The translations under genes were made by a program, and so were the position numbers. The notes under the pieces are model-generated. The model had not been told where the DNA came from and ran no database searches. It saw nothing but the letters and a program-made list of their open reading frames with translations. A stretch of DNA of 31,719 nucleotides, from IMG/VR virus record IMGVR_UViG_3300044675_005591, positions 1 to 31,719 of that record, one strand, 5' to 3'. Source of the stretch: a virus (lineage: Duplodnaviria; Caudoviricetes). This document shows positions 1-15,383 of the stretch, piece after piece; positions within the stretch are counted from its first letter, which is position 1; every line of letters starts with the position of its first letter.

Positions 1-63
1 GCCAGCGGGCTTAAAATCCGCTGCTCTGTGAAGGGCTTCCGGGTTCGAGTCCCGGCATCGGCA
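1..63 (+). tRNA. tRNA-Leu(TAA), 3' part (5' end lies outside the window); probable prophage attachment site
   Basis: Anticodon stem GCGGG/TCCGC with loop CTTAAAA (TAA at 12-14), long variable arm GCTCT-GTGA-AGGGC, T arm CCGGG-TTCGAGT-CCCGG, discriminator A63, no encoded CCA. It sits directly upstream of an integrase. Confidence 0.9.
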
Positions 64-174: not shown

Positions 175-204
175 TTGACGGAGTGTGACGTTGGGTGTTA
201 CAAA
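175..204 (+). promoter_or_regulatory. Possible sigma70-type promoter for the integrase
   Basis: TTGACG (175-180), 18 nt, TACAAA (199-204), just before the ATG at 212. Confidence 0.3.
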
Positions 205-211
205 GTGTGAC

Positions 212-1468: not shown

Positions 1469-1534
1469 GCGGAACAAATGTCGAAATCAGAATGAGGAAA
1501 CCAAAATGAGGAATGAGGAAGCGCCGAGGCGGTA

Positions 1535-1589
1535 TTTCTGGTTTTGCCGGTGCTATCCAGAAATGTGTTCTGGATAATCTTTGTTCGCC
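1535..1589 (+). other. attI-like site, locus 1 (crossover G/TT at 1583)
   Basis: 1535-1585 aligns without gaps to the reverse complement of 15333-15383 at 35/51 positions (manual count), ending at GTT. It heads an attC array. Confidence 0.65.
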
Positions 1590-1933
1590 TGATAGGGATT
1601 TCGTCCGAACAGGCAGTCAGCAGCGACAACGGAGTTGCCATTCATCGAGGTCCACATGCCTTCTTTGGCAAGTATCTCGATGATGGGCCTACCGATGCAG
1701 ATCGGGATTCTGGCGGCGTCTCGTTCGCGTTCCAGTTTTCTGGCATGGATACTCAGCGACAGATAATGTTCTGACCATTCGGTGGCATCCTTTGGCATGT
1801 GATCCACTAGAGCGGCATCAGTCTCAGGCGTCTCCGAAACAGAAGAACAAGCCTGCTGGAGACAACCCCCTTGGGCGTCTTGATCTTCGATAGCGTCTAG
1901 CTCCGGCGTGGGTGCATTGGTATTCGTTGTCAT
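1553..1933 (-). CDS. Cassette ORF, phage-type hypothetical protein (TPETDA...ARKLERERD), 126 aa
   Basis: Starts inside attC 1842-1975 and ends inside the attI-like site; ATGA overlap with the upstream ORF. Confidence 0.7.
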   Translation of the reverse strand: MTTNTNAPTPELDAIEDQDAQGGCLQQACSSVSETPETDAALVDHMPKDATEWSEHYLSLSIHARKLERERDAARIPICIGRPIIEILAKEGMWTSMNGNSVVAADCLFGRNPYQANKDYPEHISG

Positions 1934-1975
1934 TTTGTGGTTAGGTCAGGGGTTGTCTCATCAGGGTCGTTCTGC
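1842..1975 (+). other. attC-like site A
   Basis: GAAGAAC...GCTG[G]AGACAACCCC // GGGGTTGTCTCATC-AGGGTC-GTTCTGC: paired arms, one unpaired G in the left L box, AAC/GTT ends. Confidence 0.8.
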
Positions 1976-2208
1976 GGATACATGAAACTCGGGTAGGCCG
2001 TTCCTATCAAATCTTCCACCCGACAATGCCACTCATCGAGTTCGTGAGATTTTGCCCATGCCTCCATGATCGGCTCAACCAGCACGAGGATTTCCAGCAT
2101 AGCCTTTTCTCGGCACGCGCAGGCGTGGTGGTGAGTTGCGCCAACTGCCGAACAAGGCGAGGCAGCGCAACCCTCAGGAGCGGGCAAGTTTGTTTTTGGA
2201 TCAGGCAT
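1930..2208 (-). CDS. Cassette ORF, hypothetical protein with THHHACACRE motif, 92 aa
   Basis: ATG at 2208 lies in the loop of attC B and overlaps the upstream stop (ATGCCTGA); stop lies in the loop of attC A. Confidence 0.65.
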   Translation of the reverse strand: MPDPKTNLPAPEGCAASPCSAVGATHHHACACREKAMLEILVLVEPIMEAWAKSHELDEWHCRVEDLIGTAYPSFMYPQNDPDETTPDLTTK

Positions 2209-2249
2209 CTGGGGCGCTCCTTTCGGGTTGCTGCTCTTTTGCGTTGAGG
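2147..2249 (+). other. attC-like site B
   Basis: GCCGAAC-AAGGC-GAG[G]CAGC-GCAACCC // GGGTT-GCTGCTC-TTTTGC-GTTGAGG. Confidence 0.8.
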
Positions 2250-2497
2250 TCACAAAACATCTGGCATTGGCAGTCGGGGCATTGGCAAAGCGTCGAGTCA
2301 TATTCGCGATTGCATTGGAGGCAGCGGCGCCGGAGTCCATGCTGTGGGAGCAGTGGCATGCCAAACATGAGCCGGAACCGATTTCCTGCATGCAGCTTTG
2401 AGAGTGCGCGGTGATTGGCCGCGCGCTGTTTCGGCGTGGGAATTGGAACAAGATCGCCGCATGGGGGCTGATCGTTGGCGTGCATGGAATTAGGCAT
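2201..2497 (-). CDS. Cassette-associated ORF with Cys-rich (zinc-ribbon-like) C-terminus, 98 aa
   Basis: CLQC...CPDC motif; reads through attC C and stops inside attC B. Confidence 0.55.
   Translation of the reverse strand: MPNSMHANDQPPCGDLVPIPTPKQRAANHRALSKLHAGNRFRLMFGMPLLPQHGLRRRCLQCNREYDSTLCQCPDCQCQMFCDLNAKEQQPERSAPDA
2372..2480 (+). other. attC-like site C (degenerate)
   Basis: CCGGAAC-CGATT-TCCT[G]CAT-GCAGC // GCCGC-ATGGGGG-CTGATC-GTTGGCG; more mismatches than the other sites. Confidence 0.55.
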
Positions 2498-3044
2498 TTG
2501 ATGGGACGGTGGAGAGGATCTCGGCCTCGATGACCGTGCTGCTTTGCTGTTCGAGGGCGGCGGCTTTGGCGGCGGCGGCTTTGGCGCGGGCCTCTGCTAA
2601 GCGATCCTGGGCGCTGATCGTGACGACGGCTTTGATTTCGGTGGGCATGCCGTTGAGGGAGCGCTCGATGTCGTGGGCGAGTTTGCTGCTCATGGAGACG
2701 GCCATGAGGTCGGACTTTTTGGCGTCGGGGATGAGCTCGGCCATTTTGCTGGTGCCCTGAAGGCGGGCGATGGCGGCGTTTTTGGCGGCGAGGTCGGCAA
2801 GCTGCTCGATGCTGAACTCGCTGCGCATGAGGGCGGCAATGGTTTGGCGGGATTTGTCGATTTCGAGGGTTTTGAGTTCGCGCTGGAGATCGGAGATGGA
2901 GGTGATGCCGTGCTGGGTGATCATCTCAATGCAGACGGCGTAGGAGTCGGGGTCGCTGGACTTCCAGTTTTTGGCGGTGTGTTCGCGCCAGGCGTCGATG
3001 GGACGCGGGGGGAGATCGGCGAGGGGGAGAGCGGGGGTGTCCAT
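2490..3044 (-). CDS. Hypothetical helical protein, possibly terminase small subunit-like, 184 aa
   Basis: HTH-like N-terminal region, helical middle, VIEAE-type tail. The TerS call is inference only. Confidence 0.6.
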   Translation of the reverse strand: MDTPALPLADLPPRPIDAWREHTAKNWKSSDPDSYAVCIEMITQHGITSISDLQRELKTLEIDKSRQTIAALMRSEFSIEQLADLAAKNAAIARLQGTSKMAELIPDAKKSDLMAVSMSSKLAHDIERSLNGMPTEIKAVVTISAQDRLAEARAKAAAAKAAALEQQSSTVIEAEILSTVPSNA

Positions 3045-3045
3045 G

Positions 3046-3117
3046 GGGAGACTGGGAGACTGGGAGACTGGGAGACTGGGAGACTGGGAGACTGGGAGAC
3101 TGGGAGACTGGGAGACT
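3046..3117. repeat. Perfect tandem repeat (GGGAGACT) x9
   Basis: Read directly; it ends 1 nt from the ATG (3044) of the 184-aa gene. Confidence 0.97.
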
Positions 3118-3145
3118 AGGCGGCGCGATGCAGTGCGGCGAAGGG

Positions 3146-3180
3146 GATGACTTTGTTGACTGCATTGACGTTGTTGACGG
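3146..3180. repeat. 9-bp periodic (T)TGAC repeat after the intI stop
   Basis: TGAC at 3148, 3157, 3166, 3175; related arrays at 6363-6392 and 6767-6805. Confidence 0.8.
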
Positions 3181-3188
3181 GGTAAGAA

Positions 3189-4211
3189 TTAGGCGGCGCG
3201 TTGATGAGGGGTGAAGGGCACGACGTTGGAGGCTGGCTGTGGCAGAGAGTCGAGGGGACTGCGGATTTCGCTGGCGAATTGGCGGATGCAGTGGGTGTAG
3301 AGCTCGGTGGTTTCGAGATGAGCATGGCCTAGCAGTTCTTTGAGCTTGTGGATGCTGCCGCCGTTTTCGAGGTAGGCGGTGGCGAAGCTGTGGCGGAGGG
3401 TGTGGACGGTGATGCGTTTGCCGATGCGGGCGCGCTGGGCGGCTTTTTTGAGGGCTTTGGCGAGGGTGTCTTCGTGGAGGTGATGACGGCGAATGATGCC
3501 GGTTTCGGGGTCGCGTGAGGGCTGGCGGCCGGGGAAGAGGAATTGCCAGGGCCAGTCTTCGCCATAGCGGGGGTATTTGCGGGCGATGGAGTCTGGCAAC
3601 CAGACGCCGGGGAGGTTTTGGCGGCGATCGGCTTGCCAGAGGGCTTCAAGACGCTGGAAACGGGCTTGAAGGACGGGGATGAGGCTGGCGGGTAGGCAGG
3701 TGGTGCGGTCTTTGTCGCCTTTGCCGCCGCGGACGGTAATGAGGCGGGCGCTGAGGTCGATGTCGCGGATGCGGAGGCGGAGGCCTTCGTTGAGGCGGAG
3801 GCCGCTGCCGAACATGATCTGGGCGATGAGAAGGCAGGGACCTTCGAGATGATGGGCGAGGGCTTGGAATTCGCTGCTGGAGAGCCAGACGGGGAGGCGC
3901 TGTTTTTGGGGTGGTTTGACCCATTCGGGCATTTGACCCAAGGGGGTGCCGAGGCCGTGCTTGTAGGCGAAGACGAGGGCGTTGAGGGCCTGCTGCTGGG
4001 TTTTGGGTGAGCAGCCGCCGGGGCGTGTGGCGAGATGGGCGAGGTAGCGGCTGACTTTGGTTTCTGAGTCGGCTGCATGAAGGCCGGGCTGACTGAGGAG
4101 CCACAGGGCGTAACGTCGTGCCCAGCCTGCGTAGCATTGCCACGTTTTGCGGGCTTTGTGGTCGCGTTTGGCGGCACAGATGACTTGCTCGATGAATTCG
4201 GAGGTTGTCAT
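3189..4211 (-). CDS. intI: Integron integrase
   Basis: Tyrosine recombinase motifs GLRLNE, GKGDKDR, HTLRHSFAT, LLGH and TTELYTH, plus the IntI-specific insertion PGVWLPDSIARKYP...WPWQFLFP...RHHLHE. Confidence 0.93.
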   Translation of the reverse strand: MTTSEFIEQVICAAKRDHKARKTWQCYAGWARRYALWLLSQPGLHAADSETKVSRYLAHLATRPGGCSPKTQQQALNALVFAYKHGLGTPLGQMPEWVKPPQKQRLPVWLSSSEFQALAHHLEGPCLLIAQIMFGSGLRLNEGLRLRIRDIDLSARLITVRGGKGDKDRTTCLPASLIPVLQARFQRLEALWQADRRQNLPGVWLPDSIARKYPRYGEDWPWQFLFPGRQPSRDPETGIIRRHHLHEDTLAKALKKAAQRARIGKRITVHTLRHSFATAYLENGGSIHKLKELLGHAHLETTELYTHCIRQFASEIRSPLDSLPQPASNVVPFTPHQRAA

Positions 4212-4218
4212 GATAACT

Positions 4219-4252
4219 CAGAATGGAGGTGGGGTTAATTCAACTGTTAGGC
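4219..4252 (+). other. attI site, locus 2 (core GTTAGGC at 4246-4252)
   Basis: Canonical GTTRRRY about 35 bp upstream of the intI start. 4219-4240 matches the locus 3 site at 17/22 positions. The core is the exact complement of the next attC's GCCTAAC. Confidence 0.8.
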
Positions 4253-4585
4253 AGAAGGCACCGTATGCGGTCCATATTTACGAAGCCGGGTGAGCGTTCG
4301 CTCCATGTTCTCAACGTCGCGCTCCAGTTGCTCGGCCCACATCTTGTTTTTGCGGGTCGTTCGTCCGAGCGCAACGTCGTGGTCCCCGAGCAAAGAGCGT
4401 GTGTGCTCAAGGCCAGCGTCGAGCGCGTGAATCGCGGCGTATATGTCATCCTTCTGAACCGTCCAGAGTTCGGGTTGGTATTCGGTAATCATAAAATTAA
4501 AAACTGAGCCTAACAAGGCGATGGAGACAAGCCGAGTGCTTGCCACGTTTTCATTCGCGGGAGGTTTTTGGTTCGTGGGAATCAT
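4247..4585 (-). CDS. Cassette ORF, hypothetical coiled-coil protein (112 aa; start may be the internal MITEYQ)
   Basis: The TAA stop is part of the core site; the annotated start lies inside attC 4508-4615. Confidence 0.7.
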   Translation of the reverse strand: MIPTNQKPPANENVASTRLVSIALLGSVFNFMITEYQPELWTVQKDDIYAAIHALDAGLEHTRSLLGDHDVALGRTTRKNKMWAEQLERDVENMERTLTRLRKYGPHTVPSA

Positions 4586-4615
4586 TGGTTCGGCTGTCTC
4601 ACCTTGTCGTTCAGG
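4508..4615 (+). other. attC site 1
   Basis: GCCTAAC-AAGGC-GATG[G]AGA-CA[A]GCCGA // TCGGCTG-TCTCACC-TTGTC-GTTCAGG: R''/L''/L'/R' geometry with two extrahelical bases. Confidence 0.88.
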
Positions 4616-4651
4616 GCACTCACGTTAGTCTTTCGGACTTCGTGAGCGCCC
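4614..4651 (-). terminator. Stem-loop downstream of the 103-aa cassette gene
   Basis: GGGCACTCACG..AGTC-TTTCG-GACT..CGTGAGCGCCC; no clear U tract. Confidence 0.4.
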
Positions 4652-4664
4652 GTCACAGGTGGCG

Positions 4665-4976
4665 TTACATTTTCAGTCCGTCAGCCGTCGGCTCGATCAC
4701 GAGCGATGTCGGGTCTTTGCTGTGCGGGTATGGATTCGGCGTGTTCTGCGCCTTGAGGTCCATGCCGAGCCACATGATTGCTTCCTCGATCTTGGTCACG
4801 GCGAGGCTGCGTTCACGCGATGAGCGCACGGGATGGTCTGGCGCACGTTCTCCGGTGTAGCCTTTGTCACTGCCTTGTTTGAGGCGTTGGAGGCATTCAT
4901 CGAGGTCTTTGCGCCATTGCTTCGTCTGGAAGACAAAGGCTTCTTGCTGGTCTGGGTTTGGTGTCGTGGTTTCCAT
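4665..4976 (-). CDS. Cassette ORF, Acb2/Tad1-like helical-hairpin protein (candidate anti-defence nucleotide sponge), 103 aa
   Basis: SSRERSLAVTKIEEAIMWL resembles the Tad1 (SSRENACALTHVEEALMW) and Acb2-family helix, as recalled from memory. Confidence 0.6.
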   Translation of the reverse strand: METTTPNPDQQEAFVFQTKQWRKDLDECLQRLKQGSDKGYTGERAPDHPVRSSRERSLAVTKIEEAIMWLGMDLKAQNTPNPYPHSKDPTSLVIEPTADGLKM

Positions 4977-5024
4977 GTTATCGTTGTCGTTTGGTTTCTA
5001 CTTCGGCAGTCTGGGGTGCCGTGC

Positions 5025-5117
5025 CCTGAACCATGCGCTGGTGGCAACGGCTCGAAATTTATCTGTCACGGTTGCGGGGCCTCAGTGCTCGCCGTCGCCA
5101 CAGCTTCGGCGTTCTGC
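5025..5117 (+). other. attC site 2
   Basis: CCTGAAC-CATGC-GCTG[G]TGG-CAACGGC // GCCGTCG-CCACAGC-TTCGGC-GTTCTGC. GTGCCCTGAAC (5021-5031) is the exact complement of the cassette start GTTCAGGGCAC (4609-4619). Confidence 0.88.
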
Positions 5118-5431
5118 TCACCGACTAGCGCGACGCACTTCGAGTGCAGCAAGGTGCCTCCAAAGCCCGCTGCCATGATTGGCACGTTTTTCACCACTGA
5201 GCGCAAGACAGATTCGCATTCGTGCAAGCGGCGAGTCATTGCGTCCGGTGGCACATAAAAGTTGTGGCTGCATCCGCCGCAGCACACATCAGCAGCGTGA
5301 CCGTCGTAAAGCCAGAGTTTGCCGCAGTTTGGACATTCAACGAACTGCTTGACCACGAAAGCGGAACCAGCGGATGCAGGCAACCCAGTGGGTCGGTTTG
5401 TCGGAGTTTGAGAGTCGGTTTCTTCGGTCAT
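5066..5431 (-). CDS. Cassette ORF, zinc-finger-like protein (CPNC...CGGC), 121 aa
   Basis: Starts in the loop of attC 3 and stops in the loop of attC 2. Confidence 0.7.
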   Translation of the reverse strand: MTEETDSQTPTNRPTGLPASAGSAFVVKQFVECPNCGKLWLYDGHAADVCCGGCSHNFYVPPDAMTRRLHECESVLRSVVKNVPIMAAGFGGTLLHSKCVALVGEQNAEAVATASTEAPQP

Positions 5432-5497
5432 GTATTTGAGGCTGGTGAGTGTCTTTCGTGGTTATGCCCCAGGGTTGCCTGATCCTGGTCGTTCACT
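5361..5497 (+). other. attC site 3
   Basis: GCGGAAC-CAGCG-GAT[G]CAGG-CAACCC // GGGTTG-CCTGATC-CTGGTC-GTTCACT. Confidence 0.87.
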
Positions 5498-5951
5498 TTT
5501 CGCCGAGGATGAGGTTGACGGTCTTGATGAACCATTTGGCGAGGGAGTTGTCGGCCTGGATGGCGGATTGGAGGCGGTGCCAGGCTTCTAAAACTGCGGC
5601 GGGGCTGGTGTCGATGTGGCCGGTGGTGTGGGCGGTGACGGCTTCGCGGAGGGTGCCGGGATCGGACTCGGCGATGGCGGCGATGGTGATCTCGAGGCGC
5701 GGGAGGTAGTCGGGCGGGCAGTCGTCGCGCAAATAGGCGATGAGCCAGCGGCGGGCGGTTTCGTCATCGACGGCGCGGAGGAGCTGGCCAAAGCGCTCGG
5801 GGCGCGGATGCTGGTCGCGGCGGATGCTGTCGATGGTGCCGCGTTTGAGGCCGGCGGTGTTTTCGAGGCTGAGGATGGTGCGCGTGGGGTTGCGCTGAAG
5901 GTAGTCTTCGAGTTGGACGGATAGATGGCTCATGCGTCCAGCTTGGTGCAT
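5493..5951 (-). CDS. XRE-type HTH protein, repressor-like
   Basis: N-terminal HTH-like segment TILSLENTAGLKRGTIDSIRRDQHPRPERFGQLLRAV. Its stop codon overlaps the last GTT core of the array. Confidence 0.65.
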   Translation of the reverse strand: MHQAGRMSHLSVQLEDYLQRNPTRTILSLENTAGLKRGTIDSIRRDQHPRPERFGQLLRAVDDETARRWLIAYLRDDCPPDYLPRLEITIAAIAESDPGTLREAVTAHTTGHIDTSPAAVLEAWHRLQSAIQADNSLAKWFIKTVNLILGEK

Positions 5952-5964
5952 TAAATCGTTGTTT

Positions 5965-6288
5965 TCAACAATTTTTTGATGCGGGAGGGTGTGCGGGCTT
6001 TTGAGTTTGGGCGCGGGGCTTTTTAGCTCCGGTGTGTGTGTGTGGAGGGGTTTGAGGCCGTGGATCCTCGGTGCTTTGGCTGGGGGCTGCGGCGGGGCTG
6101 GGAACGGCTAAAATGGCGGCCTGGAGGGCGTCGGCGAGGCTGAGGCGGTGGGCCTGGGCGTAGGCGAGGAGGTGGGCGTGGGCGGTGGCGCTGACGCGCG
6201 GGAGCGTGGTGCGGCGGGGCTGCTGGAGGGCGGGACGGCCGCGGCTGCGCTTGCGGGCGGTGGTTTTGGTGTTAGGCTGGGGGATCAT
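5965..6288 (-). CDS. Small DNA-binding protein (RGRP motif plus ribbon-helix-helix-like segment)
   Basis: From ATG 6288: RSRGRP...TTLPRVSATAHAHLLAYAQAHRLSLADALQAAI. Confidence 0.5.
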   Translation of the reverse strand: MIPQPNTKTTARKRSRGRPALQQPRRTTLPRVSATAHAHLLAYAQAHRLSLADALQAAILAVPSPAAAPSQSTEDPRPQTPPHTHTGAKKPRAQTQKPAHPPASKNC

Positions 6289-6320
6289 GGCGTTGGTGAA
6301 TGCTGGCGCTGTTTGTGATG

Positions 6321-6354
6321 AGCCCCCGGCGATTTGCGGTCGCCGGGGGCTTTG
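6321..6354. terminator. GC-rich hairpin, terminator-like
   Basis: AGCCCCCGGCGA-TTTGCGG-TCGCCGGGGGCT, a 12-bp perfect stem in an intergenic gap. Confidence 0.6.
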
Positions 6355-6362
6355 TGCGTTTG

Positions 6363-6392
6363 GGTGACGTTGTTGACCTGGTTGACGGGTTA
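6363..6392. repeat. 9-bp periodic GTTGAC repeat
   Basis: 25 bp (GGTGACGTTGTTGACCTGGTTGACG) identical to 6767-6791. Confidence 0.85.
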
Positions 6393-6644
6393 GGCGGCTT
6401 CGGTTTCGGTTTCGGTGGCCAACAGGCTGATGGTGTCGCCTTCGTGGAGCTGGCACTCGCCTTCCAAGATGACCCAGCCGCCGCGCAGGTTGCCGCCTGT
6501 TGAGCGGCCGATGCCTGTGCAGCGTTGGCCGAGTTGGCCGAGGTCGAAATCTTCGACAGTGTGGTCGTCTGGGCCGGACCATTCCAGGTGGGCGGTTTTG
6601 ATGCCGTGGTTGTCTTCAATGCGGGTGATGGTGGCGGTGGTCAT
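6390..6644 (-). CDS. Hypothetical protein, 84 aa
   Basis: Compact ORF between a promoter-like repeat and a 3' repeat/hairpin. Confidence 0.6.
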   Translation of the reverse strand: MTTATITRIEDNHGIKTAHLEWSGPDDHTVEDFDLGQLGQRCTGIGRSTGGNLRGGWVILEGECQLHEGDTISLLATETETEAA

Positions 6645-6650
6645 GGCGGT

Positions 6651-6742
6651 GTTTGTGAGGTGGTGGTTGCGTTTGCGGTGCAGTGCTCGGGATGAGCATG
6701 TGGGAGCTTAATGCGTGATTTGTTGCGTGCAATAATTATTTG
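6651..6742 (-). promoter_or_regulatory. Duplicated leftward promoter/leader, copy 1
   Basis: Minus strand TTGCAC-N16-TAAGCT followed by a TGCTC..GAGCA hairpin; closely similar to 8163-8261. Confidence 0.6.
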
Positions 6743-6766
6743 TTGAAATGTTTAACGGTGACGGAC

Positions 6767-6805
6767 GGTGACGTTGTTGACCTGGTTGACGTTGTTGACG
6801 GGTTA
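6767..6805. repeat. 9-bp periodic GTTGAC repeat
   Basis: TGAC at 6769, 6778, 6787, 6796, directly after the TAA of 6803-7210. Confidence 0.85.
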
Positions 6806-7210
6806 AAGATCCCAATGAATGCCGCGCGTGCCGTAGTAGGAGGTCGCAGCGGCTTCGCCTTCTTTGTGGGCTGTGGCGTTTCCGCACGGGGTGCAGACGC
6901 CATAACCGGTGTCTCTGTTCCACCATTGGCGGCCTTTGGTGCGCTGACCGCAGCAACAACAACTGAGGTTGCGCGCTGGGCGAACGGGGGCCGCGCTTTG
7001 ACGGCGGAAGATGGTCGCGAGATCGGGCAGGAGGTAATCGCCGCTAGGCTGTAAGCGCGGGCGGTGGGCAAGGCCGCGACTGCGGGCGGCGCGCAGAAGA
7101 TAAGCAACGCGGGCACGCGGCACATCGTGTGCGCGCTGCTCGCTGTAATAAACGAGGCTGAATGCGGCTTTGATGCGGACGGGCTGGGCAGGTGTTTGGG
7201 GAATGGACAT
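6803..7210 (-). CDS. Hypothetical protein with Cys motif (CCCCG...GRQWWNRDTGYGVCTPC), 135 aa
   Basis: ORF track; likely metal-binding C-terminal domain. Confidence 0.65.
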   Translation of the reverse strand: MSIPQTPAQPVRIKAAFSLVYYSEQRAHDVPRARVAYLLRAARSRGLAHRPRLQPSGDYLLPDLATIFRRQSAAPVRPARNLSCCCCGQRTKGRQWWNRDTGYGVCTPCGNATAHKEGEAAATSYYGTRGIHWDL

Positions 7211-7268
7211 GGGATGATGAGCGGTAAAAGTTTGCCCGCGTGTGGGATGCGCGGCCCCCGTGTGGGGT

Positions 7269-8153
7269 TTAGGCTTTGAGTTTCTTCATCTCTTCGGCCA
7301 AGGCCCAGAGGGCGCGGTTGACGGTGGTGTTTTGGTCGATGCCGCCGATCTCGCGTGTCTGGCGGCGTGCCACACGGCGGCCTTTGTCGTCGCGCTGGAC
7401 GTAGCGGAGGCCGCCGCGAATGAGGCTTTCTTGCACGGTGTTCAGCGTGTTCCAAATGGTCGGCGCGGCGTCTTCATGGCGGCGAAGGGTAAGCACCTGG
7501 TCTGGAGTGACAGGAGCGGCTTTGTCTTCGTAGCGTGCGACGAGTGCGGCGGTGGCAAAGGCGCGTTGCTCGCCTGCGGTGAGCTGCATGCTGGCCATGC
7601 TGCGGACGCTTTCATTGACTTCGGGGAGCTTTTCCATGAGGGACACGCATCCGTCGATCACCTGGCCGGTGACATCGCCCTTGTGAGGGACGCGGATGTC
7701 TTCGATCATGTTTTGTGCGACGACGAGGCCGTTGCCGCAGACGAGGCGGAAGATGCCTGCCATGAGGCGATAAGAGCTGGTGCCGTCGTGCGAATTGAGC
7801 AGGACGATCTCGTTGTGATTGCCGCCGACTTCGAGTTTTTGGCTGTCGTGGCGGAGGCGAATCAGATGCTTGGTGAAGCCGCGCTTTTCTTCGTCGCGAG
7901 AGCCGCCTTGCATGACGGCGTAAGGGCGGAAGCCTTCGCGCATGAGGCTGGTGAGGACTTCGCTGGTGGGGATGTAGCTATAAACGGCGGAGCGGCTGCT
8001 GTGGGCCTGCTCGGCGAAGATGCTGGGGGCGATGCTGCGGAGCTGGTCGAGATCCAAAGGCTGGCGGGAGGTGTAATTGACCGCGCCGTTGCTGCGGGTG
8101 TGGGTGCGAGCGAAACGGGAGATGTGGGAGGAGTAGGAGCCGAGGATGTTCAT
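7269..8153 (-). CDS. DUF932 (DUF945) family protein
   Basis: Motifs APSIFA..AHSSRS..YSYIPT, FTKHLIRLRH, LLNSHDGTSSYRLMAGIFRLVCGNG; start at ATG 8153. Confidence 0.85.
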   Translation of the reverse strand: MNILGSYSSHISRFARTHTRSNGAVNYTSRQPLDLDQLRSIAPSIFAEQAHSSRSAVYSYIPTSEVLTSLMREGFRPYAVMQGGSRDEEKRGFTKHLIRLRHDSQKLEVGGNHNEIVLLNSHDGTSSYRLMAGIFRLVCGNGLVVAQNMIEDIRVPHKGDVTGQVIDGCVSLMEKLPEVNESVRSMASMQLTAGEQRAFATAALVARYEDKAAPVTPDQVLTLRRHEDAAPTIWNTLNTVQESLIRGGLRYVQRDDKGRRVARRQTREIGGIDQNTTVNRALWALAEEMKKLKA

Positions 8154-8162
8154 GATGATGCT

Positions 8163-8261
8163 GTTTGTGATGTGGTTTGAAGTTCGCGTTTGCGGCGCGG
8201 TGCTCGGTGATGAGCACGTGGGGAGATTAATGCGGGAATTGTTGCGTGCAAGTATTAATTG
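8163..8261 (-). promoter_or_regulatory. Duplicated leftward promoter/leader, copy 2 (divergent control region)
   Basis: Minus strand TTGCAC-N16-TAATCT, then hairpin GTGCTC-ATCACC-GAGCAC; AT-rich. Confidence 0.6.
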
Positions 8262-8342
8262 CAGGAAAATGTTGTTTGCGTCTTTTTGGTTGACTATGGG
8301 GTAACCTGTGTAATTCTTCGGCGTATCCGTTTTCTCAACGCT

Positions 8343-8546
8343 ATGCCGAACGACGACACTCCGCCCCCGACGCCGCCCGATTTGATCGTGCTGGAAGCCC
8401 TCAAGGAGACCTGCGAGCAGGTGCGCCGCCACAATAGCAATCCGGAGGTGGCGAAGGCTGCGCTCCAATGGGAGACGCGCTTTGCCGCGAGCATGAAGAA
8501 GCACGAAACGGGAGGCGCTGGCCGCGAGGTGGCGACGACGGCGTGA
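8343..8546 (+). CDS. Hypothetical protein, first gene of the rightward operon
   Basis: ATG 8343; stop overlaps the next GTG. Confidence 0.55.
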   Translation: MPNDDTPPPTPPDLIVLEALKETCEQVRRHNSNPEVAKAALQWETRFAASMKKHETGGAGREVATTA

Positions 8547-8740
8547 TTTCGGATCTGCAACAACGCATTTCCGCCGCTCTGCGCAAGGGCAAGCGGCAGG
8601 TCGAGGCCACGGGCGCGGGAGCGCTGGGGAGTGCTTCCCGCGCCCCGGTGGCCCGGGCTTACGAGGTCCGGGAGTCGTGCGGTAATGTGCGGCGCTCTTT
8701 TTTGCTGTGGCATCCCCTTAAACAAGGAGGTCGGCCATGA
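8543..8740 (+). CDS. Hypothetical protein
   Basis: GTGA and ATGA couplings at both ends. Confidence 0.5.
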   Translation: MISDLQQRISAALRKGKRQVEATGAGALGSASRAPVARAYEVRESCGNVRRSFLLWHPLKQGGRP

Positions 8741-8910
8741 TCGCGGCGGCTTTTTTTGTGCTGACTCTCCTGGTGATCTGGCTGGGCGCAGCGGCGGTGG
8801 CGGCTCTGGCGCTGCCTGAGCGCGATTGGCGCGCGGAGGATTTCGAGCTTCGCGAATACGCGCAGTGGAAGCGGGAACGTGAGGGCCGCGGCGATGCCGA
8901 CGGCAAGTGA
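8737..8910 (+). CDS. Small membrane protein, 57 aa (below the ORF-track cut-off)
   Basis: AAGGAGG RBS; MIAAAFFVLTLLVIWLGAAAVAALAL hydrophobic N-terminus. Confidence 0.6.
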   Translation: MIAAAFFVLTLLVIWLGAAAVAALALPERDWRAEDFELREYAQWKREREGRGDADGK

Positions 8911-8944
8911 TCGGGCGCGCCTTTTCTTTTTTTTGACTCTTACC

Positions 8945-9337
8945 ATGTCGAAGCGGGCTTTCTCCACTCCTACGGCTGCGGCGGTGCTCCAGAACGGGCG
9001 CTGGTCGGCCGCTGAGGTGGCGACGCTGCTCGATGTGCCGGTGTCGCTGGTGGAGCGCTGGGCGCAGACCGGCCTGGTGCCGGGGTGCTCAGTGGTGGCA
9101 GGCCGCTGGATGCTGCCAGGGCGCTCTCTTTTTCTTTTTTTGGGCCGACGCATTGAGCCACACTATTCTGTCGAGACAGTGGCGACGCTGTTGGATCGGC
9201 CGGTGAAGACGGTGCGCGGATGGTTGCGGCTGGGTCGGCTGTCGAGCGTGAAGCTCGGGCTGGCGCGGTCATCGGCTTGCCTGGTGCCGGAAAGCGCGGT
9301 GATCAGACTGCTGCGCGGGGAAGGAGGTGCGGCATGA
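8945..9337 (+). CDS. Tandem excisionase/MerR-type HTH protein
   Basis: Two repeats: WSAAEVATLLDVPVSLVERWAQTG and YSVETVATLLDRPVKTVRGWLRLG. Confidence 0.75.
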   Translation: MSKRAFSTPTAAAVLQNGRWSAAEVATLLDVPVSLVERWAQTGLVPGCSVVAGRWMLPGRSLFLFLGRRIEPHYSVETVATLLDRPVKTVRGWLRLGRLSSVKLGLARSSACLVPESAVIRLLRGEGGAA

Positions 9338-10011
9338 CTGCGTCACAAAATGTGGTGCAATCCGGCGCGCTCAATGTGTGTGTGGCTGAGGCTGCGCTGG
9401 CCGGTCCGGATGCCGGGATGGATTGTGTGGCGGGGGAAGTTTCGGCAATGGGCGCGGCGGTCGCGACGGTGGCCGCTGGGCCGGATCGGGTGCCTGGCGC
9501 GGCTGCTGTGACGGCGTCAGCGGATGCGGAATCCGCTGTGCGTTTCGGTTTTACCTGCGTAAATGCGGCCTTGACTGCGCCATGTCACACTTCTTGCCAC
9601 ACTTCGACCGGGCAGAAGGCCGACCTGGGCGGCGCGGTCTCGGTGGTTTTGAACGAGGGGGGGCGGGGGTCGGTCGCGACGACGGCCGGCGTCCCTATAA
9701 TCGGATTCGAGGTCACAGAAAATTTTGTCAATGTCCATGCCGCCGCGTTCACCGATGCAGGCCAGTTGCTGGCGCGCGAGATCCGCACCGGAGCCATCGT
9801 GCTGGTGCAGGTAGCGGCTGGGCTGGATTGCTCGACGCTTGCGCTTCCGGCTGTTTTGGCCTGCCGCAAAAAAAAGGGCGGCGCGCTGGTGTTTGAAGGA
9901 CCGGTGCCGGAGTGGAAATGCCCGCAGTGCTGGCTTGCCCAGCCGCGCGATTGCATGGAGCAGCCTTGTGGCTGGCAGGACAAACCCAAAAAAAAGGGGG
10001 GCGCGGCATGA
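9334..10011 (+). CDS. Hypothetical protein with Cys-rich C-terminus
   Basis: GGAGG RBS, ATGA couplings at both ends; N-terminal half is low complexity. Confidence 0.5.
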   Translation: MTASQNVVQSGALNVCVAEAALAGPDAGMDCVAGEVSAMGAAVATVAAGPDRVPGAAAVTASADAESAVRFGFTCVNAALTAPCHTSCHTSTGQKADLGGAVSVVLNEGGRGSVATTAGVPIIGFEVTENFVNVHAAAFTDAGQLLAREIRTGAIVLVQVAAGLDCSTLALPAVLACRKKKGGALVFEGPVPEWKCPQCWLAQPRDCMEQPCGWQDKPKKKGGAA

Positions 10012-10310
10012 GCACGGCCACCGTCAGCCTTTGGGACACCGCACCGGCCACCGCGGCCGTGCGTGAGCGTCCCGTGCACGAGCTGCTGCACCAGCGCTCC
10101 AAGCTGGACGAATGGAGCGAGCAGATCCGCGTCATCCGCGATTTGCTGCCCGATCCCGATGTGAGCCCAACCGAGCGCTTGGCGCTCAGCATGGAGCTCG
10201 CCGTCGCCAAATGCGGCGCGCTGGCTTGTGCCAACGCCATAACCGCCTGCGAGGAGCGCATGCGCCAGCAGCACGCCCGCATGCAGCGCACCCATGGTCA
10301 TTTGCTTTGA
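10008..10310 (+). CDS. Hypothetical protein
   Basis: ATGA-coupled start. Confidence 0.55.
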   Translation: MSTATVSLWDTAPATAAVRERPVHELLHQRSKLDEWSEQIRVIRDLLPDPDVSPTERLALSMELAVAKCGALACANAITACEERMRQQHARMQRTHGHLL

Positions 10311-10319
10311 ATTTTCCCC

Positions 10320-10595
10320 ATGAACGACAACGACTCCCCAACTGACTCCTCACCGCCTGAGTTCACCATTCAGGTGCTCCGGCACAAACCGAATGCGCAG
10401 ACCCGCGTGCTTGAGCCTTGGCCCATGGCCACGATCAACATCACGCAGGCAGGCACCGTCTGCTTCTCTGGCGATGCCAGCAAAAGCTACGGCCCCATGC
10501 AGCAAGCCTTTGAGGCCACCGTCACCGCCTTTGCCCAGGCCGCGGCCAAGATCATCGAGCGGCAAATCATTGTCAAAGCCGACAAAACTCTATGA
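10320..10595 (+). CDS. Hypothetical protein, 91 aa
   Basis: ORF track; operon position. Confidence 0.6.
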   Translation: MNDNDSPTDSSPPEFTIQVLRHKPNAQTRVLEPWPMATINITQAGTVCFSGDASKSYGPMQQAFEATVTAFAQAAAKIIERQIIVKADKTL

Positions 10596-10906
10596 GCTAT
10601 GAAACTCACCGCCTGGGTGCGCGAATCCGCCGCCAATCTCCGCGTCAAGCCGACCACGCTCTGGCGCACCCTGTATCGGCAACGGCTCCCGTGGCCGGCC
10701 ATGATCAAAAAAAACCGGCGCGTGTTCGACGTGCTGGATCCGCCGCTGTTCCCGTCGTGCGTGCCATCTGGCGTGATGCCACGGGCACGCGCGTCCGCCT
10801 CACCTACGTCACCCGCGGCACCGTCGATTACCAAAACCTCGACACCGGCGGCCATGGCGTCATGAGCCGCGCTTGGCTCGAGAAACACTTCACTCCCCTG
10901 CCCTGA
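10592..10906 (+). CDS. Hypothetical protein (competes with the overlapping ORF 10599-10865)
   Basis: Coupled at both ends; frame ambiguous. Confidence 0.4.
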   Translation: MSYETHRLGARIRRQSPRQADHALAHPVSATAPVAGHDQKKPARVRRAGSAAVPVVRAIWRDATGTRVRLTYVTRGTVDYQNLDTGGHGVMSRAWLEKHFTPLP

Positions 10907-11886
10907 TGCACAAGTATTGGAGACACATCGGCGATTACGCCAAGGACACTCGGCACCTCTCCATCCTGGAGCACGGCGCTTTCACCCTCATGCTCGACTG
11001 GTGCTATGCCTCCGAAAAGCCGCTGCCCGAGGATGAAAAGGTGCTTTTCCGGCTTTGTGGAGCCTTCGACAAGGCCGAACAGAAGGCCGTGTTGGCTGTT
11101 CGCGATGAATTTTTCACCCGCGAGCAGTCCGGCTGGACACAGAAACGCGTGCTGGAAGAGATCGCTGATTTCCGCGACAAGCAGGCCAAAGCCAAGAAGG
11201 CAGCAGACGAAAGTTGGAAGAGCAGGCGCAATGCGGACGCAATGCAGACGCATAGCGAACGCATCCAAAATGCAGAGTCGAATGCAATGCCTCGCGCGCA
11301 CGTTCCAACAACCAACAACCAACAACCAGCAACCAATCTACTCTTGCTCGCACCTCACGGTGCTGAGCCGACGGCCGATGATCCCGAAGGCTCCGCCGCA
11401 GCCACCCCAGAAGGTTCTGGCGAAAAAAAGAAAAGGGGGGCGGCGGTGGAAGACTTGGCCTGGGCACCGGACACGGGTTGGACGGGCTTCACGGACACGC
11501 TCATGGACGAGCTGGCTGGCGCTTACCCGGCCTGCGACATCCGGCGGCAGATGCTTGCCATGGAGCAGTGGTTGAAGGCGAACAAGGCCAAGGCTCGCAA
11601 GAGCAACTGGCGCAAGTTCGTCACCAACTGGCTCGCCAAGGAGCAGGATCGCGGTGGTGATCTGCGCGGCAAGACACCCTTCCAAGCCTTCTCGGATAGC
11701 TTTGGCGCGAAAAAAGAAGCGCCGCCGCTCACGGTGGAGCTTCCGCCGGACGGCTACGAGCAGGCCATGACCGCTCTTTGGGGCGATGGCTGGGAGGGCA
11801 CCGTGCCCGGCTGGCCGCAAATGGTCGCCAGTGACAAAGCACAGGTCCGCCGCTGGCTCGCTCAGCATGGGAAGGAGGCGGCGTGA
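10906..11886 (+). CDS. YdaU/DUF1376 family phage replication protein
   Basis: N-terminus MHKYWRHIGDYAKDTRHLSILEHGAFTLMLDWCYASEKPLP; upstream of a DnaB gene. Confidence 0.8.
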   Translation: MHKYWRHIGDYAKDTRHLSILEHGAFTLMLDWCYASEKPLPEDEKVLFRLCGAFDKAEQKAVLAVRDEFFTREQSGWTQKRVLEEIADFRDKQAKAKKAADESWKSRRNADAMQTHSERIQNAESNAMPRAHVPTTNNQQPATNLLLLAPHGAEPTADDPEGSAAATPEGSGEKKKRGAAVEDLAWAPDTGWTGFTDTLMDELAGAYPACDIRRQMLAMEQWLKANKAKARKSNWRKFVTNWLAKEQDRGGDLRGKTPFQAFSDSFGAKKEAPPLTVELPPDGYEQAMTALWGDGWEGTVPGWPQMVASDKAQVRRWLAQHGKEAA

Positions 11887-12890
11887 ATGAGCTGGCTCTT
11901 TTCGCGGGCGCTGGTGGTGGCATTCTCGGAGGGAAGCTCCTGGGATGGCGCTGCGTGTGCGCTGTGGAGTGGGATGCCTATGCCGCAAGCGTGCTTGTGG
12001 CACGGCAAAACGATGGATGCCTGGAGCCGTTTCCCATCTGGGATGACGTGCGCACCTTTGACGGAGGTGCATGGCGAGGCCGTGTTGACGTGGTTTCTGG
12101 CGGGTTTCCCTGCCAGGACATTTCCTGCGCTGGCAAAGGAGCGGGCATCGATGGGGAGCGAAGTGGGATGTGGGTGGAGATGGCCCGGATCATCGGTGAG
12201 GTGGGACCGCGATACGTGCTCGTGGAGAACTCGCCAATGCTCACTGTTCGGGGGCTTGGAACAGTTCTCGGGAACTTGGCCTCGCTGGGGTATGATGCGA
12301 TCTGGGGAGTGCTGGGAGCTGATGATGCCGGAGCTCCACACCGACGGAAACGAATCTGGATCATGGGATGGCGAAGAGACGTGGCAGACGCCGACGGCGC
12401 AGGATGCGAATGGTCGCACGCACCACAATCAACGCGATGGCTCCAAGCGTGCGAGCCTGCTGGGGCAGGTGGCGATGTGGCCAACGGTGCGCAGCAGCGA
12501 CGGAGAGAGAGGTGGACGCGGCGATTTGATCCAAGCGGTGCGGGGCAATCCAAACAGGCATTACAAACTCTGGCAGACGCCAGTGGCGGACGATGCGGTG
12601 GACCGCAAAACAGGGAAGTGGAACTCGCGAGGCGAGGCCAAGTTGTCTGCTCAAGTCAAGATGCTACCAACGCCAACGGTGCAGGATGCGAGCAACAACG
12701 GCGGTCCTGCTCAGATGGAGCGGAATGCACTGCCGCTAAATGCGGTGGCTGGTGGTGCGCTGAACCCGACGTGGGTCGAGTGGCTGATGGGGTGGCCGCT
12801 CGGGTGGACCGATTGCGGTGCCTCGGCAACGGACAAGTTCCGGCAGTGGTGCGGCTCGCATGGCAAACCTTTAACCAAATCAACGCATGA
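11883..12890 (+). CDS. DNA (cytosine-5) methyltransferase, catalytic polypeptide
   Basis: Motif I FAGAGG, IV GGFPCQD, VI ENSP, VIII HRRKRIW, X LRCLGNGQVP. Confidence 0.9.
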   Translation: MNELALFAGAGGGILGGKLLGWRCVCAVEWDAYAASVLVARQNDGCLEPFPIWDDVRTFDGGAWRGRVDVVSGGFPCQDISCAGKGAGIDGERSGMWVEMARIIGEVGPRYVLVENSPMLTVRGLGTVLGNLASLGYDAIWGVLGADDAGAPHRRKRIWIMGWRRDVADADGAGCEWSHAPQSTRWLQACEPAGAGGDVANGAQQRRRERWTRRFDPSGAGQSKQALQTLADASGGRCGGPQNREVELARRGQVVCSSQDATNANGAGCEQQRRSCSDGAECTAAKCGGWWCAEPDVGRVADGVAARVDRLRCLGNGQVPAVVRLAWQTFNQINA

Positions 12891-12894
12891 GTGA
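11887..12894 (+). CDS. Overlapping alternate-frame polypeptide with motif IX-like segment (putative methyltransferase beta subunit)
   Basis: 335 open codons, four W/L-P/Q-T-P/V repeats and LNPTWVEWLMGWPLGWTD; ATG 8 nt after AAGGAGG. Confidence 0.6.
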   Translation: MSWLFSRALVVAFSEGSSWDGAACALWSGMPMPQACLWHGKTMDAWSRFPSGMTCAPLTEVHGEAVLTWFLAGFPARTFPALAKERASMGSEVGCGWRWPGSSVRWDRDTCSWRTRQCSLFGGLEQFSGTWPRWGMMRSGECWELMMPELHTDGNESGSWDGEETWQTPTAQDANGRTHHNQRDGSKRASLLGQVAMWPTVRSSDGERGGRGDLIQAVRGNPNRHYKLWQTPVADDAVDRKTGKWNSRGEAKLSAQVKMLPTPTVQDASNNGGPAQMERNALPLNAVAGGALNPTWVEWLMGWPLGWTDCGASATDKFRQWCGSHGKPLTKSTHE

Positions 12895-14551
12895 TCAACC
12901 TGCCAAAGACCGCGCCGTGACCACCGAGGAGCGGCTGGCCAAAATCAACCGCGCCCTTCCCTTCTCCGATGAGGCAGAGAAAGGGCTGCTGTCCTGCCTC
13001 ATGCAAGATCCCGAACGCATCGCCGAAGTGCGCGCCAAGCTGCCGGCCGAGGCGTTTTACCACGCGGGCAACCGCACCTTGTTCGAGGTCATGCTGGAGA
13101 TGCTGGATAAAAACCTGCCGGTGGAACCGGTGTCTCTGACACACCGGCTGCGTGATCAGGAAAAGCTCGAGCGAGTGGGCGGCGCTGCGCACGTAAGCGA
13201 GCTTTACGATTTCACACCGATCGCCGCGCATTATCCGCATTACGTGCACATCATGCGTGAGAAATGGGCGCTGCGGCAGACCATTCACGCCTGCGCCGAA
13301 AGCATTGACGAGTGCTTGCATCACGGCACGGAAACGAATGACGAAGACATTACGGCCGTGGTCGGTCGCGCGGAGAGCCGCGTGTTTGAATGCGTGCAGG
13401 CGCTGCAAGCCTCCGGCGAGTATTCCACCGGCCCCGTGCATGCGCGGCGCGGCGTGATTGATTGGGTCGAGCGCACGGAGCAGACCATCGCGAATCGTGG
13501 CAAGATCATGGGCCTCGAAACCGGCATCTTGGAGCTCGATCAAACCGTGCACGGACTCGATGATGCACAGGGCGAAATTGTCGTCATCGCGGGCCGTCCC
13601 GGCCAGGGCAAGACCGCCATGGCGACCACGCTCATCCACAACCTCGCCGTCGAGCGCAACGTGCCCGGGCTCGTGTTCTCCGCCGAAATGAGCAGCGTGC
13701 AGCTCTACGACCGCATCATTCTCGGCGGTGCCAGCATCGACACCAGCAAAGCAATCACCGGCATGTTCTCCCGCGCCGACCAAGACGCCATGCAGGGGAA
13801 GGTGCGCCAGGTGCAAACCGCGCCGTTGCTCATCTCCGACGGCTCCGCCATCTCCACCGCCGACATCCGCAGCCAAGTGCAAGTAGCCAAACGTCAGCAC
13901 GGCATCCGCTGGATCGTCGTCGATCACCTGCACCTCATCAAAGCCGTCAGCAAGCGCGGCCTCAAAGACGAGCGCGAGGCACTGGTCGAGGTCATGGAGA
14001 CGCTGCAATTCGTCAAAAAGTTCTACAAGCTCACCGTGCTGCTTATGGTGCAGCTCAACCGCGAAACCGACCGCAACGCAGGCAAGCCGCCCGTGCTCGC
14101 CGATCTGAGCGGCAGCGCCGCGATTGAGTGGTATGCCGATCACGTTTGGATGCTGCATCGCGACCCGTATTTCTTCGGCTGGCACACGCTCAGCGAGGAG
14201 AAGAAAAAAGGCTGGGCCGATGCCGTCGAGCCGCGTCGCGAGCGCAACCCGCAATGCTGGAGCAGCGGTGGCAAATACGGCGAGGAAGACGGCGGCTGGC
14301 CCCGCGAGGACTACGAGCAGGACGCCAAAATCTACGTCCGCAAGAATCGCCGCGGCCCGACACCCGAGCTCCATATGCGCTTCGAGGACTGGCGCACCTG
14401 GTTCAGCAGCCGCATGCCCAAACTCAACAGCACCGACTGGCGCGACTGGCAGTTTGGCAGCTACGCCGTGCCCAAGAAAGAGCCCCGCAGCAAACCCTCC
14501 GGCAAATCTAAACGCACCGACGACGGCTGGGACGCCGATTTCAAAGATTGA
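12887..14551 (+). CDS. dnaB: Replicative DNA helicase, DnaB family
   Basis: N-terminal LPFSDEAEKGLL, Walker A GRPGQGKT, FSAEMS, VVDHLHL, QLNR, DLSGSAAIE, KNRRGP. Confidence 0.93.
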   Translation: MSDQPAKDRAVTTEERLAKINRALPFSDEAEKGLLSCLMQDPERIAEVRAKLPAEAFYHAGNRTLFEVMLEMLDKNLPVEPVSLTHRLRDQEKLERVGGAAHVSELYDFTPIAAHYPHYVHIMREKWALRQTIHACAESIDECLHHGTETNDEDITAVVGRAESRVFECVQALQASGEYSTGPVHARRGVIDWVERTEQTIANRGKIMGLETGILELDQTVHGLDDAQGEIVVIAGRPGQGKTAMATTLIHNLAVERNVPGLVFSAEMSSVQLYDRIILGGASIDTSKAITGMFSRADQDAMQGKVRQVQTAPLLISDGSAISTADIRSQVQVAKRQHGIRWIVVDHLHLIKAVSKRGLKDEREALVEVMETLQFVKKFYKLTVLLMVQLNRETDRNAGKPPVLADLSGSAAIEWYADHVWMLHRDPYFFGWHTLSEEKKKGWADAVEPRRERNPQCWSSGGKYGEEDGGWPREDYEQDAKIYVRKNRRGPTPELHMRFEDWRTWFSSRMPKLNSTDWRDWQFGSYAVPKKEPRSKPSGKSKRTDDGWDADFKD

Positions 14552-14587
14552 TTCACCCACAACCCACACACCACACCGACACCCACC

Positions 14588-14992
14588 ATGCCCAACAAAC
14601 TCAACGCCTACATTGACCCCGCCAAGCTGCAAGGAGCGCATCTGATGCAGATCAAAGACCGCGCTGGCACGCCGCAGGAATGCCTTGTCATCGTGCTCAA
14701 GGACTCGCGCATCCGTCGCTCCGAGAAATCGGGCAAGCTCGGCCTTTCCATTGACATCGTGCCCAACAAGGACGGCAAAGACGAGTATGGAAACACGCAC
14801 TGGATCAAAGAAAGCACCACCAAAGCCGAGCGCGAAAGCCCGCAGCCTCCCAATCTGCACTTCCTCGGCAATGCCCGTGAGTTTGAACTTGGTGGCCAGC
14901 GCACCGCCCGCCCCGCCGCAGGCTCGCCCGTGACCGGCGGCAGCGAGGCACCCATGGCCGACGGCATGGAGGACGATGACATCCCGTTTTGA
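14588..14992 (+). CDS. Single-stranded DNA-binding-like protein
   Basis: Acidic tail EDDDIPF; follows the helicase. Confidence 0.65.
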   Translation: MPNKLNAYIDPAKLQGAHLMQIKDRAGTPQECLVIVLKDSRIRRSEKSGKLGLSIDIVPNKDGKDEYGNTHWIKESTTKAERESPQPPNLHFLGNAREFELGGQRTARPAAGSPVTGGSEAPMADGMEDDDIPF

Positions 14993-15010
14993 ACTGTGAA
15001 GGGAAATGCA

Positions 15011-15104
15011 CGCCAACCGTCGAAAATCAGGCGACGGCGAGCGCCAAGCCTGATTTGCACGACAGATGATCTTCGAGCCGCGGCCTGCATTTTCTTTGTT
15101 CAGC
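15011..15104 (-). other. attC-like site, locus 3
   Basis: Minus strand GCTGAAC-AAAGA-AAAT[G]CAGG-CCGCGGC // GCCGTCG-CCTGATTT-TCGACG-GTTGGCG; shares CGGCTCGAA..ATCTGTC and GCTCGCCGTCGCC with attC 2. Confidence 0.78.
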
Positions 15105-15135
15105 ATCAAAGTCCAAACATCAACCTTATCACATT

Positions 15136-15333
15136 ATGACCCCCGAAAACTTTTGTTATTGGCTGCAAGGCTTGTTTGAGGTGCAAAACCCCCGAGCACT
15201 GACCGAAGCACAAACCGCCGTGGTGAAGGAACACCTTCAAACGGTATTCAATAAACGCACAAAGAAGACCGTCGAGCGCACTGAATCGCTCCCGGCTCAG
15301 TCGCCTCCAACGCGGGGTGGCCGCATATGCTGA
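15136..15333 (+). CDS. Cassette ORF, phage-type hypothetical protein (MTPENFCYWLQG...), 65 aa
   Basis: Flanked by GTTCAGCAT (15098-15106) and ATGCTGAAC (15327-15335); its stop is part of the core site. Confidence 0.75.
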   Translation: MTPENFCYWLQGLFEVQNPRALTEAQTAVVKEHLQTVFNKRTKKTVERTESLPAQSPPTRGGRIC

Positions 15334-15383
15334 ACGGTAATTATTCCAACCACCATTCCGCATAATACCCGCAAAACCGGAAA
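15329..15383 (-). other. attI-like site, locus 3
   Basis: Minus strand TTTCCGGTTTTGCGGGTATTATGCGGAATGGTGGTTGGAATAATTACC-GTTCAGC; similar to both other attI-like sites. Confidence 0.7.

Follow-up and report, generated by a model that had tools for sequence, protein, structure and literature searches.

Integrons are usually seen as bacterial devices that are rare and accidental in phages. In the available text of Qi et al. 2023 (PMC9892861), 3 complete integrons are counted in 10,705 phage genomes; the phage integrons in print according to that text are of host type, and one has two attI sites. The Shewanella prophage M16-3 described there carries an integron that is complete as well as a CALIN, both of which have an attI, and resembles the system studied here in having one IntI and several attI-headed arrays. 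The words "antisense" and "in trans" are absent from the main text of that paper; its supplements may show orientations. In the literature covered, which is thin on subscription papers, no antisense or multi-attI phage-native integrons are described.

The DNA studied here, called the window below, is a whole virus record of 31.7 kb with genes for head, terminase, helicase and lysis. The features that matter for the following are:

1..63, + strand: 3' fragment of a tRNA, probable phage attachment site (anticodon TAA from the sequence; Rfam tRNA 25.5 bits, below the gathering cut-off of 29)
185..1468, + strand: predicted phage tyrosine integrase, distinct from IntI
1549..1585, + strand: attI of locus 1, type B (crossover between G1583 and T1584; matrix score 42.5)
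1584..1969, + strand: cassette A (K9), locus 1 (attC 1842-1975, end boxes complementary at just 2/4; antisense ORF 1553-1933, starting within its attC and stopping within attI)
1970..2243, + strand: cassette B (K36), locus 1 (attC 2147-2249; antisense ORF 1930-2208)
2244..2480, + strand: fixed last unit of locus 1 (degenerate attC 2372-2480; antisense ORF 2201-2497)
2490..3044, - strand: phage gene separating locus 1 from locus 2; the position of its homologues makes a displaced small terminase likely
3189..4211, - strand: intact integron integrase (IntI), type A (TIGR02249 325.9 bits, above the cut-off of 265)
4212..4248, + strand: attI of locus 2, type A (crossover between G4246 and T4247, 34 nt from the intI start)
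4247..4609, + strand: cassette D, locus 2 (attC 4508-4615; antisense ORF 4247-4585; end boxes 4/4 complementary)
4610..5111, + strand: cassette E, locus 2 (attC 5025-5117; antisense ORF 4665-4976, Acb2/Tad1-like helical hairpin)
5112..5491, + strand: cassette F (K1), locus 2 (attC 5361-5497; antisense ORF 5066-5431)
15017..15334, - strand: cassette X (K0), locus 3 (attC 15011-15104 on the - strand, 22 bits, E 0.001; end boxes 4/4 complementary; antisense ORF 15136-15333 on the + strand, in line with the rightward operon)
15333..15369, - strand: attI of locus 3, type B (crossover between G15335 and T15334; matrix score 28.4)
15399..17339, + strand: large terminase, terL (phrog_2; start codon where relatives have the intI start)

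The sequencing runs that contain the window are lake-water metagenomes. Half or more of the words in 1400-7400 are present in 22 runs, 7 of which are possible sources, and no RNA run is among the runs listed as containing these words. A 40-kb twin contig (G001) is 99.9-100% identical to the window; the two may come from one population, in which case they lend each other no independent support. In general the contigs compared come from metagenome assembly and probably, in many cases, from the same lakes, which makes counts across contigs non-independent.

The window stops at the tRNA fragment, beyond which the twin contig carries phage-like genes; the prophage state named in the original prediction is putative. 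ARAGORN found no complete tRNA in 8 pieces from relatives. As a guide to the host the fragment was rejected, its matches in 401 sampled genomes being mostly at 74-85% over 42-64 nt. These 401 genomes belong to the phylum of a Verrucomicrobiia record; the nearest IntI among them, a weak pointer to the host, sits on a Mu-like contig of 3.7 kb. That the phage has its own integrase separate from IntI, as the original prediction held, finds support: ESM Atlas places 185-1468 with phage-integrase clusters at 0.99, although HMM searches were blank (no match in Pfam, PHROGs, NCBIfam or, by profile search, PDB), and R281, K322, H381-x-x-R384 and Y415 are invariant across 4 homologues. The gene at 2490-3044 matches no family in Pfam or PHROGs; its homologues sit immediately ahead of the large terminase in G004-G006 and G009.

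A few observations concern the rest of the window. Between intI and the next gene, at 3049-3118, lies an 8-bp tandem repeat of about 9 copies, whose length varies among relatives and runs. A C5 methyltransferase region at 11883-12894 has matches in two overlapping frames; in many relatives it is missing as a 1004-bp block and, being without attC borders, it represents a second kind of indel. Two copies of about 110 bp, at 6650-6752 and 8162-8273, are 80% identical, and the content around them differs in relatives.

The integron integrase with its IntI-specific insertion, also part of the original prediction, is well founded. The product of 3189-4211 covers positions 3-315 of the 315 in the TIGR02249 profile; 6 IntIs of the family all keep R139, K167, H270-x-x-R273, H296 and Y305 unchanged, and residues of the insertion region are conserved too. 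The window IntI forms a type-A group with relatives at 63-96%, while type-B IntIs are about 49% identical to it. The two groups are sisters within one branch (99/96, 27 rows). A FastTree tree of 48 rows, in which bacterial sampling is thin, gives the phage IntI branch a value of 99; its sole member from a bacterial genome is located on the Mu-like contig. The intI gene is broken, by truncation or frameshift, in G002, G003, L021 and G009, the last of which has many frameshifts and may be poorly assembled. Elsewhere, in Virus Rctr41k (KX853513, GenBank; L130), a run of small genes is followed at 4680-5678 by a gene that resembles intI and carries the annotation xerD; with the family covariance model, the 11.6 kb examined showed no attC.

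Three attI-like sites had been proposed as well. Their crossover points, at 1583, 4246 and 15335, are upheld, but the sites are of two types and not one. We built an attI matrix from 11 sites of relatives and compared it with 713 GTT sites and 50 shuffles; both this matrix and the attC model below derive from this phage family, with no outside standard. The sites at 1583 and 15335 top the 713, with the next at -7.8 and the shuffle maximum at 4.5. Site 4246 scores -43, and reaches 19.5 only with 2 nt omitted (best unrelated site in the control 0.6): beside the crossover, the spacing of types A and B differs by 2 nt. The attI of locus 2 is conserved next to 63%-identical IntIs up to G/TT and variable beyond. 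All type-A IntIs observed adjoin type-A sites, and all close type-B IntIs adjoin type-B sites.

The window has one site of the type that goes with its IntI and two of type B, whereas in G007 one type-B IntI is accompanied by three type-B sites. Across relatives locus 3 carries either type, and L023 has one of each. In 10 genomes at 80-100% completeness the attI counts are 3, 2, 3, 2, 2, 2, 3, 2, 1 and 1; at least two are found in 8/10, and two IntI in 0/10. G002 has an additional attI-like site with an altered crossover triplet. Further cassette loci, located behind the portal gene and between terminase and portal, are seen in L023 (7457-8357) and G007 (about 13600-14309). Within the type-B attI of locus 1, the two 9-bp arms of a perfect inverted repeat, 5 bp apart, lie at 1554-1576; they might serve IntI as an additional site or act as an operator.

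For the attC sites we used a covariance model built from 28 attC of relatives and none of the window, although relatives' sites can share arms with window sites. Six of the seven predicted attC-like hairpins are recovered by it: 5025-5117 at 57 bits, 5361-5497 at 53, 1842-1975 at 40.9, 4508-4615 at 36.5, 2147-2249 at 32.4 and 15011-15104 (- strand) at 22, the next-best match in the window having 11.9. The seventh, at 2372, fails, with its right arm alone matching at 10 bits. Its right end is a 12-mer that also closes locus 3 and is similar to an empty attI's right half; the site is probably a decayed last attC. An Rfam scan gave no attC match, and free folding against shuffles did not single out the seven sites (z +0.4 to -2.0). 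A rigid-spacer attC matrix, which clearly recovered 3/7 and gave one false-looking match at shuffle level, was abandoned for the covariance model. Of the 49 sites in which the first extra base could be resolved (55 are unresolved), 46 have G there on the top strand and hence C on the bottom strand. By spacer lengths and extra base the attC top strand points away from attI, as is usual (rule from the available text of PMC5027507).

Among relatives the gene content at these loci is not fixed, contrary to what had been named beforehand as refuting the integron: it differs at all three, and cassettes of 98-99% identity change loci. The comparison covers 70 loci and the window, with 181 cassettes in 104 clusters after duplicate-piece matches and two weak matches were excluded. 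The changes occur at the crossover. In 9/9 pairs, picked because their first cassettes differed, identity drops at G/TT from 52-60 of 60 nt before to 13-33 of 60 after; against G003 the figures are 59/60 and 24/60 at locus 1, and 59/60 and 16/60 at locus 2. In 25 of 31 distinct first cassettes the four bases that follow GTT match the other end of their own cassette, and among 78 distinct later cassettes 67 have complementary end boxes. Across relatives the locus-3 gap measures 57, 356, 403-404, 746, 784, 1032 or 1396 nt, the 57-nt gap being an empty type-A site (L023, L024).

Several cassettes of the window are found elsewhere. Cassette A has a 99% copy (343/387 nt) at locus 2 in G002/L012; cassette B matches, at 98% over all 274 nt, the first cassette next to a type-B IntI (L102); and cassette F has 99% copies at locus 3 of 6 other contigs. 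The joint 5111>15018, which places F at locus 3, occurs in 3 of 4 sequencing runs examined, and its short side spans just 27 letters, at a likeness of 90%, in two of them and 58 in one. Over 10 kb, L005 and the window agree at 100%, but locus 2 of L005 contains an additional cassette of 275 bp. At locus 1, three different first cassettes follow one and the same type-B site (G001, G002, G003), and two of these three genomes carry a type-A intI. The last unit of locus 1 is nearly unchanged across G002, G003 and L012. At locus 3, X is the first cassette in all 12 contigs called for this attI, and the second position varies; one contig (L041) ends 5 nt past the site, with a different base. The contig and run variants would fit recombination, both excision and integration, by the family IntI.

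Two further variants deserve mention. In L005, cassette K8 lies on either side of the Tad1-like cassette (1-110 and 615-889), a duplication of the kind that excision and re-entry would give, or an assembly effect. In L011 (2893-3552) a short-homology deletion joins the F and A cassette genes in frame, and run X16 has the same joint.

The cassette genes run antisense to attC and co-directionally with the phage operons, a layout absent from the original prediction. In 64 of 75 family cassettes the antisense ORF covers more than the sense ORF, and 63 start within attC. This count allowed ORF ends up to 200 nt; a 30-nt limit missed genes running into the next attC and gave 34 antisense against 38 sense (of 75). 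Further, Pfam matches were obtained for 13 of 75 antisense ORFs and 0 of 74 sense ORFs; 7 of the 13 are DNA methyltransferases and 1 is Tad1-like. The canonical sense orientation, read from an attI promoter, is thus not the rule in this family, and 11/13 bacterial control cassettes are not antisense. Along the leftward genes of locus 1, stops and starts overlap, which suggests translational coupling in a leftward operon. In a Terrimicrobiaceae MAG (L126, 4527-5927) there is an integron, possibly a prophage, whose two cassettes look antisense and whose attI core is spaced like type B.

The window holds one intact IntI and three attI-headed arrays. Taken together, we consider it fairly probable that its family runs a phage-native integron working in trans, where type-A enzymes load their own site and type-B enzymes the distant ones. 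IntI would recombine folded attC strands, as in bacterial integrons. The type-A enzyme would load its own attI and excise cassettes from any array, and the type-B enzyme of related phages would fill the two distant type-B sites. The backward genes would be read toward attI by the phage operons, often with overlapping stop and start codons. Judged from sequence, the type-A IntI of the window likely loads just its adjoining site. The assignment of enzymes to sites draws on neighbourhood, the constancy of locus 3 and a review sentence on other integrons.

How the distant sites arose is suggested by what follows them. The distance from crossover to start codon is 34 nt both for type-A intI and for terL, and for type B it is 48/48 and 62/63; in the window the crossover and the terL start are 63 nt apart, and in L057 the intI start lies at 62. 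Further, the order in G008 is attI, intI, terL, and in the window attI, terL. Since some intI genes are broken as well, the orphan sites are likely integrons that lost their intI frame; they would be whole integrons except for this frame, with attI and the intI leader left before the next phage gene. Phages without an intact intI would obtain the enzyme from co-infecting relatives. In its widest form, to which we give slightly better than even chances, this amounts to a distributed phage-native integron network of lake phages with backward cassettes, at most three sites ahead of phage genes and at most one IntI per phage, and two IntI/attI specificity groups drawing on a common cassette pool, where phages with a broken IntI borrow a co-infecting relative's enzyme to acquire and drop genes for methyltransferases and counter-defence.

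The original prediction saw one IntI as a plug-in system for all three positions. Of this, the swapping of genes stands, from content, breakpoints, the empty site and the cassettes shared across loci; the loading of all three sites by the single IntI of the window is not supported in that form, given that the distant attI are of the type found beside another IntI clade and that the first cassette at locus 3 is constant in 12 contigs although the second position varies. If types A and B were cross-compatible the window IntI could still load all three, and this we regard as unlikely, though a serious contender. The match of the type-A site to the type-B matrix with 2 nt omitted speaks for it, as do the sister relation of the two IntI groups, the presence of both site types at locus 3 and in L023, and the difference at locus 1 between G001 and G003, both of which are type A. 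It has to contend with the strict adjacency of IntI and site types, the 2-nt difference in spacing and, according to the available text of PMC8946536, a general inefficiency of non-cognate attI/IntI crosses. One IntI for all sites fits G007 better, which from its sequence is the cleanest case.

The distant arrays could also be relics, with attI kept as leader, promoter or operator of the next gene and with content changed by homologous exchange, since these phages are mosaic and arrays could move that way. We hold this to be improbable. The position of the terL start would agree with it, and so would the inverted repeat of the type-B site as a possible operator, the mismatched end boxes of cassette A, the degenerate 2372 site and the non-integron indels of these phages; but single cassettes are gained and lost exactly at G/TT with matching ends, and a promoter scan gave no clear excess (4 found, 2.5 expected). 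L046 and L047, two contigs with 99.8% identity over 6169 bp, have different first cassettes at an attI without a neighbouring intI, which suggests that an orphan attI stayed usable. This pair, and the four different first cassettes found behind near-identical orphan sites, would under homologous exchange each need a donor with the same attI. A last possibility, that a chromosomal integron of the host was picked up as a passenger or that the assembly is chimeric, is largely refuted and has in our view very little chance of being right. Passengers of that kind have been published (available text of PMC9892861), IntI genes occur in 117 of 401 Verrucomicrobiota genomes sampled, and the attC model also matches attC of Verrucomicrobiota integrons. 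However, the antisense genes are unlike most of the bacterial control cassettes, and the type-B site is found at no sampled bacterial IntI locus (best score -0.9); the same layout is present in the second 40-kb contig, and the 22 runs noted above contain half or more of the words in 1400-7400.

If the trans-acting phage integron that we favour is confirmed, some of the mosaicism of phages would have a site-specific mechanism, and the cassette genes could be mined as a set whose likely roles are host takeover and counter-defence. With sites differing by 2 nt in spacing, the two natural IntI/attI pairs make attI specificity directly testable. Cassette E resembles the Tad1/Acb2 anti-defence sponge in passing PF24729 (28.7, threshold 27), in its predicted helical hairpin (pLDDT 83) and in the top Foldseek rank of Tad1, but this rank has E 1.5, the wide fold search returns generic hairpins only, and the profile match to Tad1 (8kbb, E 2.7e-4) extends over 22 residues.

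Compared with known systems, the enzyme is an IntI and the element would function in the manner of an integron, while it departs from the canonical layout in gene orientation and attI number. In agreement with canonical bacterial integrons (class 1 and sedentary chromosomal), it has a catalytic IntI, an intI divergent from attI, insertion at G/TT, attC core boxes and the extra base on the arm adjoining AAC. Unlike them, its genes are antisense and usually start within attC, each genome tends to have 2-3 attI, and the extra base on the bottom strand is C (46/49), where the available text of PMC5027507 gives usually G. With CALINs it shares arrays without intI that an IntI could serve in trans (available text of PMC9668308); unlike CALINs, these arrays keep a recognisable attI and show first-position differences among near-identical phages. 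In M16-3, called cryptic in the available text of PMC9892861, the IntI is 95% identical to the host's and attI is of host type, whereas here the IntI clade and the sites are phage-linked, and antisense genes and turnover across many relatives are features of the window family. What is new is the multi-site cassette traffic with two specificity types: an integron probably rebuilt for the phage genome and used population-wide.
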